Below, piece after piece: positions 28,068-54,738 of a DNA stretch of 64,000 nucleotides. The stretch lies in assembly GCF_001677475.2 (NCBI RefSeq), contig NZ_CP015229.1. One strand, written 5' to 3'. The notes below the pieces were generated by a model. It did no database searches, was not told the origin of the DNA, and saw nothing but the letters and a program-made list of their open reading frames with translations. Each line of letters opens with the position of its first letter. The stretch's first letter is position 1. Position numbers and translations under genes: made by a program. This DNA is from Escherichia coli. GTDB lineage: Bacteria > Pseudomonadota > Gammaproteobacteria > Enterobacterales > Enterobacteriaceae.

Positions 28068-28142
<75 letters not shown>

Positions 28143-28145
28143 ATA

Positions 28146-28221
<76 letters not shown>

Positions 28222-33594: not shown

Positions 33595-34017
33595 TCATCG
33601 ATTCACCTCCTGCTCAATATTTTTAAGGTCATTTTCCGCATACAGTATTGCTGTCCTGGCTGCTCGTAACCGGGCTTTGGCATTTTTCTCTTCACGTTCA
33701 AGTTTTTCCACAGCTTCACGAAGAGCATCCCGCTTTGCATAGAGTGATTTAATCTCAGACACTATGTTTTCACCGTTTCTCGCACGGTCGAGAACAAGCT
33801 CGAACGGATCTAAAGCCAATCCGCATCGGTTACAGGTAATCGTACGATTCACTTCTGAAATTGTTGTACGGATATGCTGACAGCATTTTTGCTCGCCGCT
33901 TTTTCTGTCGGTTATCACAACGTTGAGAAGCCCTTCTTCCTCTGATTTTGGTTGCACAAGGGTGATAACATTGTCGATGTCATTTTTCATTAGCCCCCCA
34001 CTCTTGTGGTGATTCAT
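33595..34017 (-). CDS. Hypothetical Zn-ribbon plus coiled-coil protein
   Basis: 140 aa; CCQH...CNRCG Cys pairs and C-terminal coiled coil (LREAVEKLEREEKNAKARLRAAR); start overlaps upstream stop (ATGA). Confidence 0.45.
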   Translation of the reverse strand: MNHHKSGGLMKNDIDNVITLVQPKSEEEGLLNVVITDRKSGEQKCCQHIRTTISEVNRTITCNRCGLALDPFELVLDRARNGENIVSEIKSLYAKRDALREAVEKLEREEKNAKARLRAARTAILYAENDLKNIEQEVNR

Positions 34018-34190
34018 TCATCACCCCACTCATCACAATATGCTTCGACAGGTGTTTTTCCTGCTTCGTAGTCATCACGCCAGGCTTCAGCATCAACAGC
34101 ACTTCCACCACGTAACTCTGCATAGTCCATTAACAGTTCATGCCATTCTTCAAAACTGACGTTGTATTTAGTTGAACCAAAATCAGCCAT
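34014..34190 (-). CDS. Hypothetical small acidic protein (58 aa), not in ORF track
   Basis: MADFGSTKYNVSFEEWHELLMDYAELRGGSAVDAEAWRDDYEAGKTPVEAYCDEWGDE; coupled to flanking genes. Confidence 0.4.
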   Translation of the reverse strand: MADFGSTKYNVSFEEWHELLMDYAELRGGSAVDAEAWRDDYEAGKTPVEAYCDEWGDE

Positions 34191-34365
34191 TTTGTTCTTC
34201 CTCTTCGTCTTTTATTGCGTGATATGAGTAATTGCAGTAGTTAAAGAAAATTTCTTTTGCTTCATCATGAATTTCATCAGGTGTTGCGTCATCGCCCACT
34301 TCGAATACATCCTCAAAATCTCCACCAGCTATTCCCGTTTCAATAATTATTTTGAACTTTCGCAT
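34183..34365 (-). CDS. Hypothetical small acidic protein
   Basis: 60 aa from MRKFKIIIETGIAGGDFEDVFEV...; hairpin CCGCCCTTTCGGGCGG immediately 5' of start. Confidence 0.4.
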   Translation of the reverse strand: MRKFKIIIETGIAGGDFEDVFEVGDDATPDEIHDEAKEIFFNYCNYSYHAIKDEEEEQNG

Positions 34366-34509
34366 TTCACTACCGCCCTTTCGGGCGGCCTCCTGATGAT
34401 TTGAGAGTGCAAAAATCACTCCGGTTAAGGATTAAATTTTATTTACAGAACTGAATTTAATTATTCAGATATACGTATCTGTAACCCTACGAACCTACTC
34501 ACTGGATGC

Positions 34510-34983
34510 CTATTTCATAAAAATAATCCAGTGAGTTTTATCGTTTTTTCCTGTTCGTTGACCGATAACAGGTTTTCTGTCGGTCAGTGCCAATATCTGG
34601 CGAACAGGTATTTGCGTTTCATTCCATTTGAAAATCAGAACGCCGTATGGCTGCAACACACGAAAGGCTTCTTTAAATCCCTGCCGCAAATCATCACGCC
34701 AGGTATCTTTATTTAGCCGTCCATATTTCTTTCCCATCCAGGCGTTATCACCAACACGCTCAAGATGCGGAGGGTCGAATACAACCATCGAAAAAGATGC
34801 GTCTGCAAATGGTAGTGCACGAAAATCTGCTATCAGGTCAGGGCTAATTATCAGGCGTCGTCCATCACATAATGTGTGCTCTTCTTTTCTGATATCGCTA
34901 AATATCGCCCGGTCGTCATTCTTATCGAACCAGAACATACGACTACCACAGGACATATCAAGAATGGTTGCCGATTCACTCAC
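34510..34983 (-). CDS. Putative SAM-dependent (DNA) methyltransferase
   Basis: 157 aa; motif I-like ILDMSCGSRMFW and motif IV-like MVVFDPPH. Confidence 0.5.
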   Translation of the reverse strand: MSESATILDMSCGSRMFWFDKNDDRAIFSDIRKEEHTLCDGRRLIISPDLIADFRALPFADASFSMVVFDPPHLERVGDNAWMGKKYGRLNKDTWRDDLRQGFKEAFRVLQPYGVLIFKWNETQIPVRQILALTDRKPVIGQRTGKNDKTHWIIFMK

Positions 34984-35203
34984 TGTTTACCTCCTGCAAC
35001 GCTACCCGGTACGCCTTCTTTATCCACGCTGTACTGCCATATAACTTCGTCTTCATAAAAAACACCCCTGCACGGCTCGCCGATATCCCCGGACAGGCTA
35101 ACAGCACTGCATCCACCACACGGTTATGCTTCCGGAACTCCATTACAGTACTGCTGATAACCACCTGTCCCACCGGGCCGTAATCCTGATACAGGATTTT
35201 CAC
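34976..35203 (-). CDS. Hypothetical protein
   Basis: 75-aa ORF with start overlapping upstream stop (ATGA). Confidence 0.4.
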   Translation of the reverse strand: MKILYQDYGPVGQVVISSTVMEFRKHNRVVDAVLLACPGISASRAGVFFMKTKLYGSTAWIKKAYRVALQEVNSE

Positions 35204-35454
35204 GCAGACACCCTCCTGTCGAAATAAACGTAGTTATTCACTGTGCGCAGCGGCATTCCAAATTTTCTGGCGATTTCTCTCCTGGACACGCCACGCTGAT
35301 GCAATTGTCGCGTCAGCTCAATATCACTCTGCGGATATTTTGCTGACTGGTGATAATCACCCCGTAACATCATACTAATACCCAGTTCCCGCGCTTTCGT
35401 TCTGACCGCCGCCTCACTACGGCCAATCAGACTGCCGATGCTTTTTACCTTCAT
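35200..35454 (-). CDS. Small DNA-binding protein with two HTH-like segments
   Basis: 84 aa from MKVKSIGSLIGRSEAAVRTKARELGI...GVSRREIARKFGMPLRTVNNYV. Confidence 0.45.
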   Translation of the reverse strand: MKVKSIGSLIGRSEAAVRTKARELGISMMLRGDYHQSAKYPQSDIELTRQLHQRGVSRREIARKFGMPLRTVNNYVYFDRRVSA

Positions 35455-35510
35455 TGTTCCCGCGCACTGCCGAAGAATAAGGATTTCAGCCCGCACCCAG
35501 CCACGCCATC

Positions 35511-36272
35511 TCACTTCACATCCTCTCTGGAACAATTCATCTGCCGTATAATATCCCGGTACTTGTTCAGCTCCCGCAGCGCGGCGCAGACACGCTCCCA
35601 CTTCTGGACATGGCTTTTCGCCCGACGCAATTCGCGGTTTGCTATATGCAGCGATGGTAAAATCAGGTCATCCCCTTGCGTTTCGGTGAGCGATGGTAAC
35701 GACTGCACCATGTCCGCCACAGTTTCTGTTTTAATATCTTCCTGTGTTGCAGCTTCCTGTACCGGTAACGCAACACCGGCTGGCTGAGGAAAGGCTTTAC
35801 CATCGGTTTCCGCTACCGATGCGGCTTTCAGCTCTGCTGGTAAATTATCTCCCGGCATGCAGTAGCGAAATTTACCGTTCTGGTTTACGCGTGCCAGCCG
35901 CCCCGTTGCGGTTACTACTGCCAGCGTGGAAGCAACCTTGCGAGTGCTGACACAGAACTTACCCGCCAGTTCCTCACACGTTTTAGCTCCCTCCTGACCG
36001 ATAAACTCAATCATCATGTCAGCGGTAACTTTTCGTTCGACCGCCCTGGTCAGCACATCCGGTACTTCAGATTGTGCTGGCTGCTCTTCGGTTACCCCGG
36101 ATTCACCTTCGCCAGCCAGAAACCAGGTGTGACCCGTTTTATCAACGACGCCATTTCTTTTCAGTTCCCACAGCTCGTTCAGCACTTCTTCACGACTGAT
36201 ATCAAGTCGCGCAGCCAGTTCTGTCGACGTGGCTTTCCCCATTGCTTTCAGTGCGTCAAAAACAGTCTCCAT
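35511..36272 (-). CDS. Hypothetical phage protein (DUF1627-like), N-terminal winged-helix
   Basis: 253 aa from [43 protein letters not shown]. Confidence 0.5.
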
Positions 36273-36306
36273 TAAAATTTCCTCCCGGTAAAAATCACTT
36301 CTCAAC

Positions 36307-36972
36307 TCAAACAAAACCAGCCGTTTTCCGGCGTTCATACTCCTGTTTCAGCAACTCAATTGGCGTTGGTCCCGACGGGCGTTTGGGTGCCGCCAGTTGT
36401 CGCCGGACTGGCGGAATGCTCAGGCCATTACCAACATGCTTTGCCCATTTCGTCAGTTGCCGTTCTGCAAGCCGTTTTAACTCCCCTTCGGTCATCTGGC
36501 GCTCAATCCCCTTTGAACGCATCTCGAGGCAAATGTGATACAGCACAGGCTGAGACCACGGGTACTTATCACTTCCGTCGTATCGCCAGGACTCATTGCG
36601 CCAGCGGCGGTACTCCTCCATCACAGCATCCACCGTCAGACCGAATGGATTGGCTCCGCTTTCCGAAATCAGTGCCACAAACTCAGCCAGGTCCGGAGGC
36701 CATGTTTCACCCGCCCGGCAGCGGTCCATGCACTGGCGGCAGACCTGCCGGATTTGCTGCTCAGTCATCGCGCCAATCTGTGCAATCCAGAGCTTCGAAG
36801 GTGCGGCCCCGTTCTTCCGGGGCCAGCGGTTCGAATAAACCTCCCCCATGAGTTCCCACAGCTTCCAGGCCGTTTCCGTCGCTGATAAATCCGTTTTCAC
36901 GTTCCCACTGCTCACGTGCTGCCCGAATTTCCTGAACTGCCCGTGATGCGGTGCCACCTGGTGCTGCTGCAT
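36307..36972 (-). CDS. Replication protein P-like helicase loader (true start probably internal, ~36768)
   Basis: C-terminal half resembles lambda P ([16 protein letters not shown] ; [14 protein letters not shown]...IPPV); 5' part overlaps the O-like gene. Confidence 0.6.
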
Positions 36973-37801
36973 GGTTTGCCCCCTTGCTGACTGGTTTAAC
37001 CTGTGCCCTGACGTGATTTACGTGACGGGCGAATTTCTGCTCCCACTGAACCTGCGTGAAAACTTTACCCTCCTCAGTCCAGTAATCCCTGAATGCGGCA
37101 AGTTCAGCAGGTGTAAATTCCGGCTCTGGCAGAGCCATCCCCCACAACGCAGCCCGTCGTCGAAAATCCCGTGACGGATACCAGCTATCGGTCATCGGAA
37201 ATTTTCCGATGGGTTCGTTCACGCCGTCCAGGAGCACGGGGGGGGTTGTCTGTAGCGACAAAACTCCCCGCTCACTGGTCGGAGCACTCTCACGTGCGTT
37301 ATGTGTGGGGTTTAGATCTTTGGGTTCCTTTGGGTTCCGTGATCCGTTTTTGGGTGTCTTTGATGGAAAATTTGGGTGTCTTTGGTTATTTTCCATGCAG
37401 CAAAGAGTTCCGTTTTTGGGGCTGTTTTGTGCTGAAACATAACCGTTTTCGGTACTGTTTTTATTAACAGCACCAATTTTACCCACCTTTAAAGACACCC
37501 GTTTTTGGGTGTATTCAGGCTCGGCAACACTTTCTTCTACACCGATAAGTCGGTACACCACAATTTGCTTTGTTCTGCCTTTTCTCTCACCGGTATCAAT
37601 AATTAACCCAATCTCCATCAGGTGTCGTAAGCTGTCCTGCACAGTCTTTTTGTTCAGTTCCGTTACTTCTGCCAGTGCAGATACAGACGGGTATGCACAC
37701 AAATCGGCACCGCACATATCAGCAAGCCAGGTCAATACTGACTTACTGGATGAACTGCCGGTTTTCACCTTTTTAGCCCACCGTAGTGCATCGATACTCA
37801 T
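36761..37801 (-). CDS. Replication initiator (lambda O-like), contains ori iterons
   Basis: 346 aa from MSIDALRWAKKVKTGSSSSKSVLTWLADMCGADLCAYPSVSALAEV (HTH); internal repeated KTPKNG / PKEPKD encoded by iterons. Confidence 0.65.
   Translation of the reverse strand: MSIDALRWAKKVKTGSSSSKSVLTWLADMCGADLCAYPSVSALAEVTELNKKTVQDSLRHLMEIGLIIDTGERKGRTKQIVVYRLIGVEESVAEPEYTQKRVSLKVGKIGAVNKNSTENGYVSAQNSPKNGTLCCMENNQRHPNFPSKTPKNGSRNPKEPKDLNPTHNARESAPTSERGVLSLQTTPPVLLDGVNEPIGKFPMTDSWYPSRDFRRRAALWGMALPEPEFTPAELAAFRDYWTEEGKVFTQVQWEQKFARHVNHVRAQVKPVSKGANHAAAPGGTASRAVQEIRAAREQWERENGFISDGNGLEAVGTHGGGLFEPLAPEERGRTFEALDCTDWRDD
37320..37530 (-). repeat. Putative replication origin iterons inside O-like gene
   Basis: Repeats of TTTGGGTGTCTTTG / TTTGGGTTCC / CGTTTTTGGG in direct and inverted orientation. 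Confidence 0.55.
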
Positions 37802-38324
37802 ACGAACCTCTGGCAGACATTTGTTTATCTGCAAAGTAATAATGATATTGCTGACGATACGCATGCTTGAAAGCAATAGCTTTTTCTATAAGCTCGTCAG
37901 TCTCACGTTCCACAACAGATGGATCCGCAAAAAGCAGCCCGGACTCCACCACATCGCCATATTCTTTGTTTAACCCGGCGATCATGTACGTAATGCTTTT
38001 TCCGTCAGTAATTTCACAATACAACCTGAAATCGCTGATCCGGATAGCCTCCATAATTGCCGGAATCAGCGCCGTGAATTTTTCCCGCTTATCCCTGGTG
38101 TCGATAGCTTTCCAGCGTTCGAATATCTTCACCCGGTTAACGCCCAGCGCCCGTTGATCAACCTCGCCATCATTAAACGTGACGCGTTGAACATCGATGT
38201 TCGGGCGTTCTTTCAGAGCCCAGAATGCTTCCGTGATTAAAATAGTCGCCTGCTCCTGTGTCATTCCTGGTCGGCATACCCAGGCATCCAGAGCCTCACA
38301 AACCTGTTCAGGGGTGATTTTCAT
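37773..38324 (-). CDS. YdaT-like regulatory protein (cII-position gene)
   Basis: 183 aa starting MKITPEQVCEALDAW..., located between the cro-like gene and O. Confidence 0.45.
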   Translation of the reverse strand: MKITPEQVCEALDAWVCRPGMTQEQATILITEAFWALKERPNIDVQRVTFNDGEVDQRALGVNRVKIFERWKAIDTRDKREKFTALIPAIMEAIRISDFRLYCEITDGKSITYMIAGLNKEYGDVVESGLLFADPSVVERETDELIEKAIAFKHAYRQQYHYYFADKQMSARGSYEYRCTTVG

Positions 38325-38535
38325 TGTTCAACCGCCCCGCCCGCTTTGCCTTACGATATTCGTCATAAACTTTGGGGTCGTACTGAAGTTCCCCGCCGGA
38401 TGCCTCTTGCAGGCGCATCGCGCGACCTTCAGGAACCAGTTCCCCCCATGCAGCAATGCTTGCCAGCCTAACTCCTGCGGCATTGGCAAGCTTTGTTTTG
38501 CTGCCAAAAAACGCTATAGCATCAATTTTCAACAT
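38308..38535 (-). CDS. dicC: Cro-like repressor (DicC-like)
   Basis: 75 aa, MLKIDAIAFFGSKTKLANAAGVRLASIAAWGELVPEGRAMRLQEASGGELQYDPKVY, P22 Cro/DicC-type. Confidence 0.75.
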   Translation of the reverse strand: MLKIDAIAFFGSKTKLANAAGVRLASIAAWGELVPEGRAMRLQEASGGELQYDPKVYDEYRKAKRAGRLNNENHP

Positions 38536-38611
38536 ATCGAGTTCCTTAGATTTTCCTAAGGAAACTAGATCGTAGAGAAACCTAAGTCAATAAAAATTAG
38601 AATTCCCTAAT
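38536..38611 (+). promoter_or_regulatory. Divergent promoter/operator region between dicC and dicA
   Basis: Palindrome TTCCTTAG-ATTTTC-CTAAGGAA (38542-38563) plus further ACCTAAG half-sites. Confidence 0.6.
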
Positions 38612-39019
38612 ATGAAAAACGAAACCTTCGGTGCTCGCCTCTTACATAGGCGTAAAAAATTAAAACTGTCTCAGGCCGCATTAGGTAAGCTGGTCAAAGT
38701 GGCTCACGTAACAATTTCTCAATGGGAAAGAGATGAAACACAGCCGGCGGGGAAAAGATTATTCGCACTGAGCCAAGCGCTTCAGTGCTCACCGACTTGG
38801 CTTCTTTTTGGGGATGAAGATAAACAACCAGGCGAACCGATCCCGGATAATCAGCCAGCCATTCTGACAGAAGATCAAAAAGAGTTACTTCAACTGTTCG
38901 ACGCACTGCCTGAGTCAGAGCAAAAGGCCCTGTTGTCAGAGATGCGTGCTCGAGTTGAAAATTTCAACAAACTTTTTGAAGAACTACTCAAAGCTCGCAA
39001 AAGAAGCGCAAACAAATAA
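38612..39019 (+). CDS. dicA: Prophage repressor DicA-like (XRE HTH, no LexA-type peptidase domain)
   Basis: 135 aa; LSQAALGKLVKVAHVTISQWERDETQP...CSPTWLLFGDEDKQP...NFNKLFEELLKARKR resembles DicA. Confidence 0.8.
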   Translation: MKNETFGARLLHRRKKLKLSQAALGKLVKVAHVTISQWERDETQPAGKRLFALSQALQCSPTWLLFGDEDKQPGEPIPDNQPAILTEDQKELLQLFDALPESEQKALLSEMRARVENFNKLFEELLKARKRSANK

Positions 39020-39079
39020 CCCCCTTTTTTCTCCACACCCTGTAATAAAAAGCACAAAATTTCAAACAATTGTGTTTTT

Positions 39080-39150
39080 TACATCAAAAAACTTAGGTTT
39101 TTCTACATAAACAGCTTGACCACATACCTTAGGTTATTCTAAATTTCATT
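39080..39150 (+). promoter_or_regulatory. Second operator cluster (OL-like) downstream of dicA
   Basis: Repeated CTTAGG/CCTAAG half-sites (AAACTTAGGTTTTTC ... ATACCTTAGGTTATTC) like those between dicC and dicA. Confidence 0.45.
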
Positions 39151-39221
39151 CATCAAGACACCGCACGGTGTTCTCAGCAAACAGTTCCGCTACCCCAGCG
39201 TTAAGGGGAAATGAGGTCAGC

Positions 39222-39377
39222 ATGGATACTATCGATCTTGGTAACAACGAATCTCTGGTGTGCGGCGTGTTCCCAAACCAGGACGGCACATTCACCGCGA
39301 TGACGTATACCAGAAGCAAAACGTTTAAAACCGAAGCTGGCGCGCGTCGCTGGCTGGAAAGAAATTCAGGTGAGTGA
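39222..39377 (+). CDS. ydfA: YdfA-like small protein (DUF1391)
   Basis: 51 aa MDTIDLGNNESLVCGVFPNQDGTFTAMTYTRSKTFKTEAGARRWLERNSGE; SD GGGGAAATGAGG. Confidence 0.6.
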   Translation: MDTIDLGNNESLVCGVFPNQDGTFTAMTYTRSKTFKTEAGARRWLERNSGE

Positions 39378-39378
39378 T

Positions 39379-39507
39379 ATGGATTTCGACGCAATCATGG
39401 AAAAGGCTTACGAAGAATACTTCGAAGGCCTTGCCGAAGGCGAAGAAGCTCTCAGCTTCAGTGAGTTTAAACAGACGCTTTCCAGTTCGGCAAAATCTAA
39501 CGACTGA
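39379..39507 (+). CDS. ydfB: YdfB-like small acidic protein
   Basis: 42 aa MDFDAIMEKAYEEYFEGLAEGEEALSFSEFKQTLSSSAKSND; start 1 nt after ydfA stop. Confidence 0.5.
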   Translation: MDFDAIMEKAYEEYFEGLAEGEEALSFSEFKQTLSSSAKSND

Positions 39508-46421: not shown

Positions 46422-46734
46422 AATTCTAAAAATTCGCTTTTTTAGCGCAATGTCACTGACCTTAGTTGAACATTGTTTTTTAACGGATAGCGGTTTTTTA
46501 ACATCTTAAGCGCCCTCGACCTTTATGGTTGAGGGCGTTTTGCTATGAACGCCATCACCATTTTCCCCTCGATTATAAAACTTGAGTTATTCAGTAGTCT
46601 CCCCTCTTGCAACTCACACCCAAAACTGCCTAACGAAAAGTTATTAATTTTCAATCATATTGCTATCAGGATTTACATTTTTTCGCTGTGCTAGAAAGGG
46701 CGCATTTATGTTAGCTCGTTCAGGGAAGGTCAGC

Positions 46735-54738
<8,004 letters not shown>

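Follow-up and report, generated by a model that had tools for sequence, protein, structure and literature searches.

The stretch of DNA analysed here, 64,000 nt of the Escherichia coli contig NZ_CP015229.1 (the window), contains a lambdoid prophage whose region is 99.5% identical to strain GB089. On the minus strand of this prophage we found a replication initiator gene of 346 codons (37801..36761), an intact open reading frame (ORF) whose position and role make it 'O-like'. The best-matching family label was phrog_1032 'replication initiation protein' (9e-90), and the 99.5% identical gene of GB089 carries the PGAP name 'DnaT-like ssDNA-binding domain-containing protein'. Inside the gene lies a dense array of short repeats (iterons), and the relation of this array to the replication origin of the prophage is the subject of this report.

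An iteron array inside the initiator gene

The array (37319-37517) comprises sites of the ACACCCAAAAACGG type, five in number, together with the 10-bp tandem GGAACCCAAA x2, all inside the minus-strand gene, where it takes up codons 95-161 (gene positions 285-483 of 1041) and encodes part of a predicted disordered linker. A preliminary description, made from the letters of the window, had proposed an iteron cluster within the initiator coding sequence at about 37320-37530 with direct and inverted copies, and both kinds of copy were indeed present. TTTGGGTGTCTTTG is exact at 37349-37362 and 37371-37384 and occurs with two mismatches at 37319-37332 and with three at 37504-37517, and CCGTTTTTGGG is exact at 37344, 37410 and 37499, with two mismatches at 37443. 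The inverted copy, AAAGACACCC at 37491-37500, is the right arm of an 18-bp dyad in which ACACCC and GGGTGT enclose AAAAAC (37495-37512). When both strands of the window were searched, all 14-mer matches with up to two mismatches and all exact 11-mer matches were confined to 37319-37517. The core [ACG][AC]CC[CG]AAA was found six times in 190 nt on one strand and 34 times in 128 kb, with ~0.05 expected per 200 nt. No DnaA box (up to one mismatch) was detected in 35029-39028.

The five iterons all lie on the minus strand. R1, ACACCCAAAAACGGGTGT (37495..37512), is a perfect 6+6 dyad of 18 bp read as Y-T-Q-K-R-V; together with its flank it reads GAATACACCCAAAAACGGGTGTCTTT on the coding strand (37517-37491), and this segment contains the dyad and is the source of the inverted copy. 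R2, GTACCGAAAACGG (37443..37456), is a weak copy that varies among close relatives, and R3 is AGCCCCAAAAACGG (37410..37423), in place of which most close relatives have AGACCCAAAAACGG, nearer to the consensus. R4, CAAAGACACCCAAATTTTC (37366..37384), is read Q-R-H-P-N-F and lies 22 bp from R5, CAAAGACACCCAAAAACGG (37344..37362), which is read S-K-T-P-K-N-G and ends the series of full iterons. The short sequences ATGGAAAAT/ATTTTCCAT form an inverted repeat around R4; this repeat was not counted as part of the element because it is absent from the Edwardsiella phage EPP-1. A second class of repeat comes next, the 10-bp tandem GGAACCCAAA on the minus strand (37318..37338, 2.1 copies), which the repeat finder TRF reported as perfect. 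The 3′ edge of the array is marked by a mosaic junction, AAAGATCTAAACCCCACACATAAC (37300..37322).

At the N-terminus of the initiator protein is a winged-helix domain (aa 1-92; 37526..37801, minus strand), modelled by AlphaFold2 (AF2) at a pLDDT of ~90 as helices followed by a beta-hairpin wing (67-85). This domain is the presumed reader of the iterons. Foldseek matched the model to generic winged-helix regulators, and the match to HTH_36, a helix-turn-helix (HTH) family, was weak, with 21 bits under a 25-bit cutoff that was passed by relatives at 32-42% whole-protein identity (N-domain ~37-75%). The disordered linker follows (aa 93-195, pLDDT below 50 in AF2), and then a DnaT-type single-stranded DNA (ssDNA)-binding domain at aa 194-267 (37001..37222, minus strand; PF17948 at 2.5e-17; PDB 6aep/4ou6 at E values of 2e-19 to 2e-18). 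In the AF2 model this domain spans aa ~197-267, and Foldseek matched it to 4ou6 with a target-normalised TM-score of 0.92 and 56% identity. The C-terminal domain of DnaT, a protein of the restart primosome, is reported to assemble on ssDNA as a helical filament (PMC13377028).

Membership of the lambda O family was rejected. The initiator gave no match in a search with PF04492, for which lambda O itself scores 5.7e-36, and direct comparison with lambda O was not significant (BLASTP E = 0.73; hhalign probability 1%, E = 0.05, aligning the HTH only). The name 'O-like' used in the preliminary description thus holds for role and layout but not for PF04492 or for similarity to lambda O. A published HHpred analysis linked the lambda O N-terminus to HTH_36 (PMC5509034), a link that was not reproduced here.

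Directly downstream of the initiator is an ORF for a lambda-P-like helicase loader (36307..36972, minus strand). As the preliminary description had said, the product is P-like: it matches Pfam Phage_lambda_P (PF06992) at 1.5e-16 and phrog_109 at 5e-62, and BLASTP against lambda P gave 5e-07. The first ATG of this ORF, at 36972, precedes the PGAP-style start (36768) by 204 nt, and over 36761-36972 the ORF overlaps the last ~70 initiator codons in a different frame. The phrog_109 alignment starts at aa 19 of the long P-like ORF, and phrog_15931 (482 positions) matches the initiator C-half plus the whole P ORF. The initiator/P pair may represent a real long gene overlap or a family with fused or frameshifted forms. 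Upstream of the initiator are a CII-like/YdaT gene (38324..37773, minus strand), a Cro-like gene (38535..38308, minus strand) and a divergent repressor with an HTH only (38612-39019, plus strand; upstream early region 37773..39019). Given the Cro-like and CII-like/YdaT genes upstream and the divergent repressor, rightward-type early transcription would therefore cross the array. An Rfam scan of 36000-39500 found nothing relevant, and a promoter and terminator scan of 36200-39200 gave counts no higher than chance. One 'terminator-like' match at 37406-37423 was discarded, as it is iteron R3 read on the wrong strand for this operon.

DNA-level selection and co-variation with the N-terminal domain

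Repeats within a gene could be the DNA shadow of a low-complexity K/N/P/G-rich linker, or the product of neutral slippage, with no role in cis. The region does encode a predicted disordered linker, several in-frame copies yield xPKNG-like peptides, the spacings in phages phiV10 and Vibrio H20 are mostly multiples of 3, and the 10-bp unit does slip. The preliminary description had also read the repeats as encoding a KTPKNG/PKEPKD peptide. We found that SKTPKNG and NPKEPKD are encoded there, but that the motif is read in frames 2, 1, 0, 1, 0 and 1, giving YTQKR, SPKNG, RHPNF, KTPKNG, RNPKE and EPKD, respectively, and the repeats are not explained by the peptide. One 9-14-mer is thus used in all three reading frames, and an inverted copy is present as well. 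Furthermore, the first iteron encodes TQKR and later ones TPKNG from identical DNA, and the spacings in the Burkholderia phage Bcep176 include 17 and 22 bp.

The same question was addressed by resampling, in which the protein was kept and synonymous codons were redrawn 1000 times from the prophage's own usage, and 11-mer pairs with up to one mismatch were counted. The observed gene had 26 direct pairs (21 of them out of frame) and 6 inverted pairs, compared with resampled means of 1.6 direct, 0.2 out-of-frame and 0.2 inverted; the observed counts were reached in 0 of 1000 resamples. Synonymous sites were then compared across 11 N-domain clusters from IMG/VR with 70-84% aa identity. Four of seven third codon positions were invariant in the first iteron, whereas the N-domain had only 6 such positions among 95 (p = 0.0015, Fisher test), showing that synonymous sites are frozen across the family. 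The use of three frames, the failure of every resample and the frozen synonymous positions together indicate that the repeats are selected as DNA, and they are constrained as DNA independently of the encoded protein. The peptide-repeat explanation was rejected by the frame analysis and the resampling, and a shadow of the linker without a role in cis is highly improbable.

Among the same 11 clusters, the 14-mer ACACCCAAAAACGG stands at gene position 290 in 10, and R5 is the conserved last copy in all 11. We found 30 linker variants among 80 near-identical loci. R1, R4, R5 and the tandem were constant in these variants, and the changes fell in the spacers, in R2, in R3 and in one dyad-arm base just 3′ of the R1 14-mer. 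In phage EPP-1, whose N-domain is ~75% aa identical, AAAGACACCC and CCAAAAACGG sites occur at equal gene positions; the iteron cores are identical to those in the window and the spacers have diverged. The C-domain of EPP-1 is Phg_2220_C, not DnaT. The reverse combination is found in E. coli 09-02E and phage Rac-SA53, where the C-half and the P gene are 86-91% aa identical and the N-halves are unrelated. The array of E. coli 09-02E is wholly different, with seven copies of GTCGTGACAN; these 10-mers form two clusters ~250 bp apart (positions 2574-2644 and 2854-2915 of its locus, L003), one of them inside the N-domain coding part, a layout unlike that of the window.

The border between the exchanged parts coincides with the edge of the array. 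Homology with initiators bearing other N-modules starts at 37300-37322, homology with EPP-1 ends there, and partial matches stop at query position 561, which is window position 37321. Bcep176, Acinetobacter phage AP22, Vibrio H20 and E. coli phage phiV10 have their own arrays of 3-7 copies at gene positions ~260-470. In each of these distant initiators the array follows closely on the segment that encodes the winged helix. A CC(A/G)AAAACGG core is common to several of them, and in some the spacings are not multiples of three. Our comparisons indicate that the repeat sequence goes with the N-terminal winged-helix domain, whatever C-domain is attached. Co-variation of this kind between repeats and N-domain is the classic pattern that defines origin specificity in lambdoid phages.

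Two side observations were made among the relatives. One relative (L157) and Bcep176 have TVL in place of TVQ at aa ~55, in the putative recognition helix, and have ACAGTCCC/ACTGTT-type repeats, not ACACCC; on these two cases, the Q-to-L change may be a specificity determinant. In addition, a record named 'Actinobacillus phage vB_Apl-pPE4' (PP818812.1) has 94% nucleotide identity to the P gene and the C-half of the initiator, and the ydaT and Ead/Ea22 genes next to them are of the kind usual in Rac-like prophages of E. coli. Its Actinobacillus host assignment looks doubtful.

The array as a probable part of the prophage origin

On sequence evidence, the array at 37319-37517 is likely to be the initiator-binding part of the prophage origin, lying within the stretch of the initiator gene that encodes the linker, much as ori-lambda lies within O. 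The preliminary description had pointed in the same direction. Its probable origin is supported by the DNA-level selection, the co-variation with the N-domain, the junction at the array edge and the P-like neighbour, and its likeness to the lambda arrangement by the similar position of the iterons in our lambda control, where they are annotated at gene positions 349-433 of 900.

From these features we infer how the origin may work. Relief of repression would allow transcription of the early operon (Cro-like, CII-like/YdaT, initiator and P-like genes), and this transcription would pass through the array, as at ori-lambda (background in PMC7466680). The N-terminal winged helix would bind R1-R5, the sites of the ACACCCAAAAACGG type, and would probably do so as a dimer, each site being an imperfect dyad of 18 bp with a central A-tract. 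The clustered initiator would then distort the DNA and open it nearby, either in the low-stability stretch between R1 and R2 or in the 10-bp tandem/GATC segment at the 3′ edge of the array. The DnaT-type C-domains might bind the exposed single strand, the P-like protein or both, and the P-like protein would deliver host DnaB.

Several observations weigh against this reading of the array. Homology to lambda O is not demonstrable, and the transfer of the lambda mechanism is therefore an analogy. The iteron spacing is irregular (57, 32, 44, 22, 20 and 10 bp). Helical phasing was considered and rejected: the spacings of 32, 44, 22, 20 and 10 bp are near whole turns, and no phasing is claimed because the first, 57 bp, is not and the relatives are irregular. 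Dyad symmetry is good in R1 only, the other copies retaining just the CCC and GG(G) arms, and even the R1 dyad, 6/6 here, is 5/6 in most close relatives (right arm GGGAGT). R2 and R3 are degenerate and variable. No obvious array was seen in the initiators of Rac-SA53 (N-domain DUF1376) or of TL-2011b, which has the same C-domain, and therefore the design is not universal. Lastly, a stability scan found no strong AT-rich block beside the array in the window, and nothing 3′ of it, while a duplex stretch as weak as the best one in the array lies upstream of the gene at ~37815-37855.

The stability scan bears on where the DNA would open. We computed a nearest-neighbour profile of duplex stability in 40-bp segments, with lambda as the positive control. 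The least stable segment inside the gene (37453..37492; z = 2.2; GC 0.33-0.35) lies between R1 and R2; within the array it is the sole candidate for an AT-rich stretch, though a weak candidate. It is thus conceivable that the initiator binds its sites mainly for control (autoregulation or a roadblock into P, handcuffing, incompatibility or exclusion) and that unwinding takes place elsewhere, for example at ~37815-37855. Plasmid iterons serve both initiation and control. The array is placed after the start of the initiator gene and before P, it has no strong AT-rich block beside it, and the 40-mer with the lowest stability in the region is upstream of the gene start. Ectopic copies of lambda ori are also reported to inhibit rep-lambda phages (PMC3349717, PMC4488673). 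However, in relatives and in lambda the least stable 40-mer comes directly after the iterons (z of 3.3 in lambda, 3.3 in EPP-1, 3.1 in Bcep176 and 3.5 in E. coli 09-02E). The N-domain and array move as one module with a sharp junction, as expected of an origin-specificity unit, and no second motif cluster was found in the 64 kb. A mainly regulatory array is therefore quite unlikely.

The segment 3′ of R5 in this prophage is the GC-neutral 10-bp tandem, and this second repeat class occupies the place of lambda's AT-rich tract. The gene has just two GATC sites, 37315-37318 and 37341-37344, which stand 26 bp apart on either side of the tandem, and the 3.5 kb before that pair (33811-37314) have no GATC. 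At least one GATC is present at the tandem spot in all 11 related N-domain clusters, and also in phiV10 and Vibrio H20, a pattern that hints at Dam/SeqA involvement. At the tandem position the related clusters have GGAATCTACCAAGGAACCATAAAGATCT or other 10-12-bp tandems containing GAAC. GAAC(C) tandems also stand directly after the iterons in phiV10 (AACCAGTCATAT x3, gene positions 405-445), Vibrio H20 (AGAACCAGTCAT x2.5, 470-510) and Bcep176 (GAACAGTAG x4, 430-476). The 10-bp tandem is thus a candidate origin-opening or auxiliary element. Its copy number varies, with two copies here, three in two IMG/VR loci and one in E. coli N5D43 (L002, L060 and L082). The 1- and 3-copy states frameshift and truncate the initiator, and 68 of the 71 scored relatives have the in-frame two-copy state. 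Slippage of the 10-bp unit thus appears to be a recurrent route by which this replication gene is inactivated.

A bolder reading would join these features in a two-part origin. Binding of the winged helix at the ACACCCAAAAACGG sites would nucleate a DnaT-type ssDNA filament on the adjacent 10-12-bp GAAC tandems, a DnaA-like opening derived from a restart-primosome module, with Dam/SeqA control through the GATC sites and 10-bp slippage switching the frame of the initiator. We regard this composite as unlikely.

Whether or not it opens in this way, an array that is an origin by descent might be inert here, in a decaying lysogen that no longer replicates alone. Sibling prophages are decaying, among them the GB089 copy, in which the portal, integrase and DUF1627 genes are frameshifted, and three relatives have an initiator frameshifted through 10-bp slippage. 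The repressor (38612-39019) has 135 aa and HTH_3 only, with no LexA-type peptidase domain, and SOS induction by self-cleavage is therefore not expected; it is likewise not expected for Sakai Sp6, Sp9 and Sp10, as reported. Sp9, which has the same module, is not mitomycin-inducible (PMC2669165). On the other side, the initiator, P, DUF1627, a 500-aa ORF at the GB089 portal position and a 341-aa ORF at the GB089 integrase position are all uninterrupted in the window, and the tandem is in its in-frame two-copy state. Sp9 has a lambda-type helicase loader and apparently functional replication genes, and its DNA was excised spontaneously and packaged (PMC2669165). We consider it unlikely that the origin is inert in this prophage, and its replication competence, which the preliminary description had suggested, is plausible.

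We also found two small circular PLSDB records, NZ_CP148379.1 (L176, 8,461 bp) and NZ_CP148543.1 (L177, 15,643 bp), that were deposited as complete plasmids and contain repressor-cro-ydaT-initiator-P and a few further prophage genes; neither has a typed plasmid replicon. These records are suggestive of natural mini-replicons like lambda-dv, or else are assembly artefacts. That they come from one sequencing project and may be artefacts is a further point on the negative side.

Sakai Sp9 has the N-module and array at 98.6% identity, and PPompW phages have the whole gene at 96%. Of 5,426 complete E. coli genomes, 906-907 carry the module. Our results thus offer a concrete candidate origin and an iteron consensus, ACACCCAAAAACGG(G), for a module of about one-sixth of complete E. 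coli genomes. Its carriers include O157 Sakai Sp9 and PPompW prophages sitting next to Stx phages, as well as Edwardsiella relatives, and more distant phages of Burkholderia, Acinetobacter and Vibrio have initiators of this type, each with its own array in the same place. Our results also suggest that the lambda rule, by which origin specificity lies in the N-domain and the embedded repeats, extends to initiators with a DnaT-type C-domain. This could help to predict which prophages are still able to amplify and therefore to raise the dosage of neighbouring genes, and the 10-bp tandem can be flagged as a recurrent inactivation site. The motif strings were in no open-access paper of the literature searched, and no title or abstract was found that addresses iterons of epsilon15/phiV10 or of primosomal-protein/DnaT genes in prophages; this module is likewise not treated in the paper on Eru replication types. 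On this search, the consensus of the iterons and the finding that it is conserved throughout the family add a modest new detail. The element itself is probably a lambda-style intragenic origin in a different, already catalogued initiator family; this kind of element is well known and no concept is changed.

Two observations concern other parts of the window. The late region of the prophage contains tRNA-Gly(tcc) and tRNA-Thr(tgt) (28068-28221). Outside the prophage, at 46660-54738, a 2,692-aa ORF is intact, whose GB089 counterpart, annotated with Ig-like domains, is frameshifted.

Comparison with known replication systems

One close parallel is ori-lambda. The origin of lambda and of the lambdoid Stx phages is made up of iterons of 18 bp, four or six of them, and an AT-rich tract; the O-some forms there and P delivers DnaB (background in PMC7466680). 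As in lambda, the initiator ORF contains several repeats in the part for the interdomain linker (39-48% of the gene in lambda, 27-46% here), and the sites are ~18 bp long with CCC...GGG arms and an A-rich centre (lambda ATCCCTCAAAACGAGGGA compared with ACACCCAAAAACGGGTGT here). The N-domain and iterons likewise form one exchangeable module, a P-type loader is adjacent, and cro and cII-type genes are upstream. The prophage differs from lambda in its DnaT-type C-domain, the lack of PF04492, its irregular spacing and its single good dyad, and in having no clear 3′ AT-rich tract but a GATC-bracketed 10-bp tandem in that place.

Iteron plasmids of the Rep_3/RepA type (pSC101, R6K, F and RK2) share direct repeats, a winged-helix initiator, some 22-bp spacings and a variable repeat number. 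The initiator, in contrast, gave no Rep_3-type Pfam or PHROG match. There is no DnaA box near the array, the repeats are inside the initiator ORF, and the helicase would be expected to arrive via a P-type loader. The ssDNA-binding domain of E. coli DnaT is ~56% identical to aa 194-267 of the initiator. In the initiator, however, a presumably sequence-specific winged helix takes the place of the N-domain of DnaT and its PriB/PriA context, an extra C-terminal tail is present, and the setting would be origin firing, not fork restart.

The two-gene architecture, in which an N-domain of the HTH_36 type (a weak match here) is joined to a C-terminal DnaT motif and a PF06992 protein is encoded next door, is shared with DopC/DopE of Cellvibrionales and Oceanospirillales. 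DopC/DopE were described by Brezellec et al. (2017) as a domesticated O-like HTH_36 + DnaT protein with a lambda-P-like partner (PMC5509034). DopC is chromosomal, in resident loci where the authors did not find iteron-like repeats (PMC5509034), whereas the gene studied here belongs to a prophage early operon and has a conserved array. PHROG 1032/3992 are families of such HTH_36 + DnaT 'O-like' initiators paired with lambda-P-like loaders. Sakai Sp9 and the PPompW-type prophages show no difference in kind from the prophage in the window, and their records do not annotate the iterons. Together, these comparisons indicate that initiators of this type look like the phage-side counterpart of DopC/DopE, and the gene described here resembles an undomesticated form of that architecture, as found in phages, in which the origin would still be in place.

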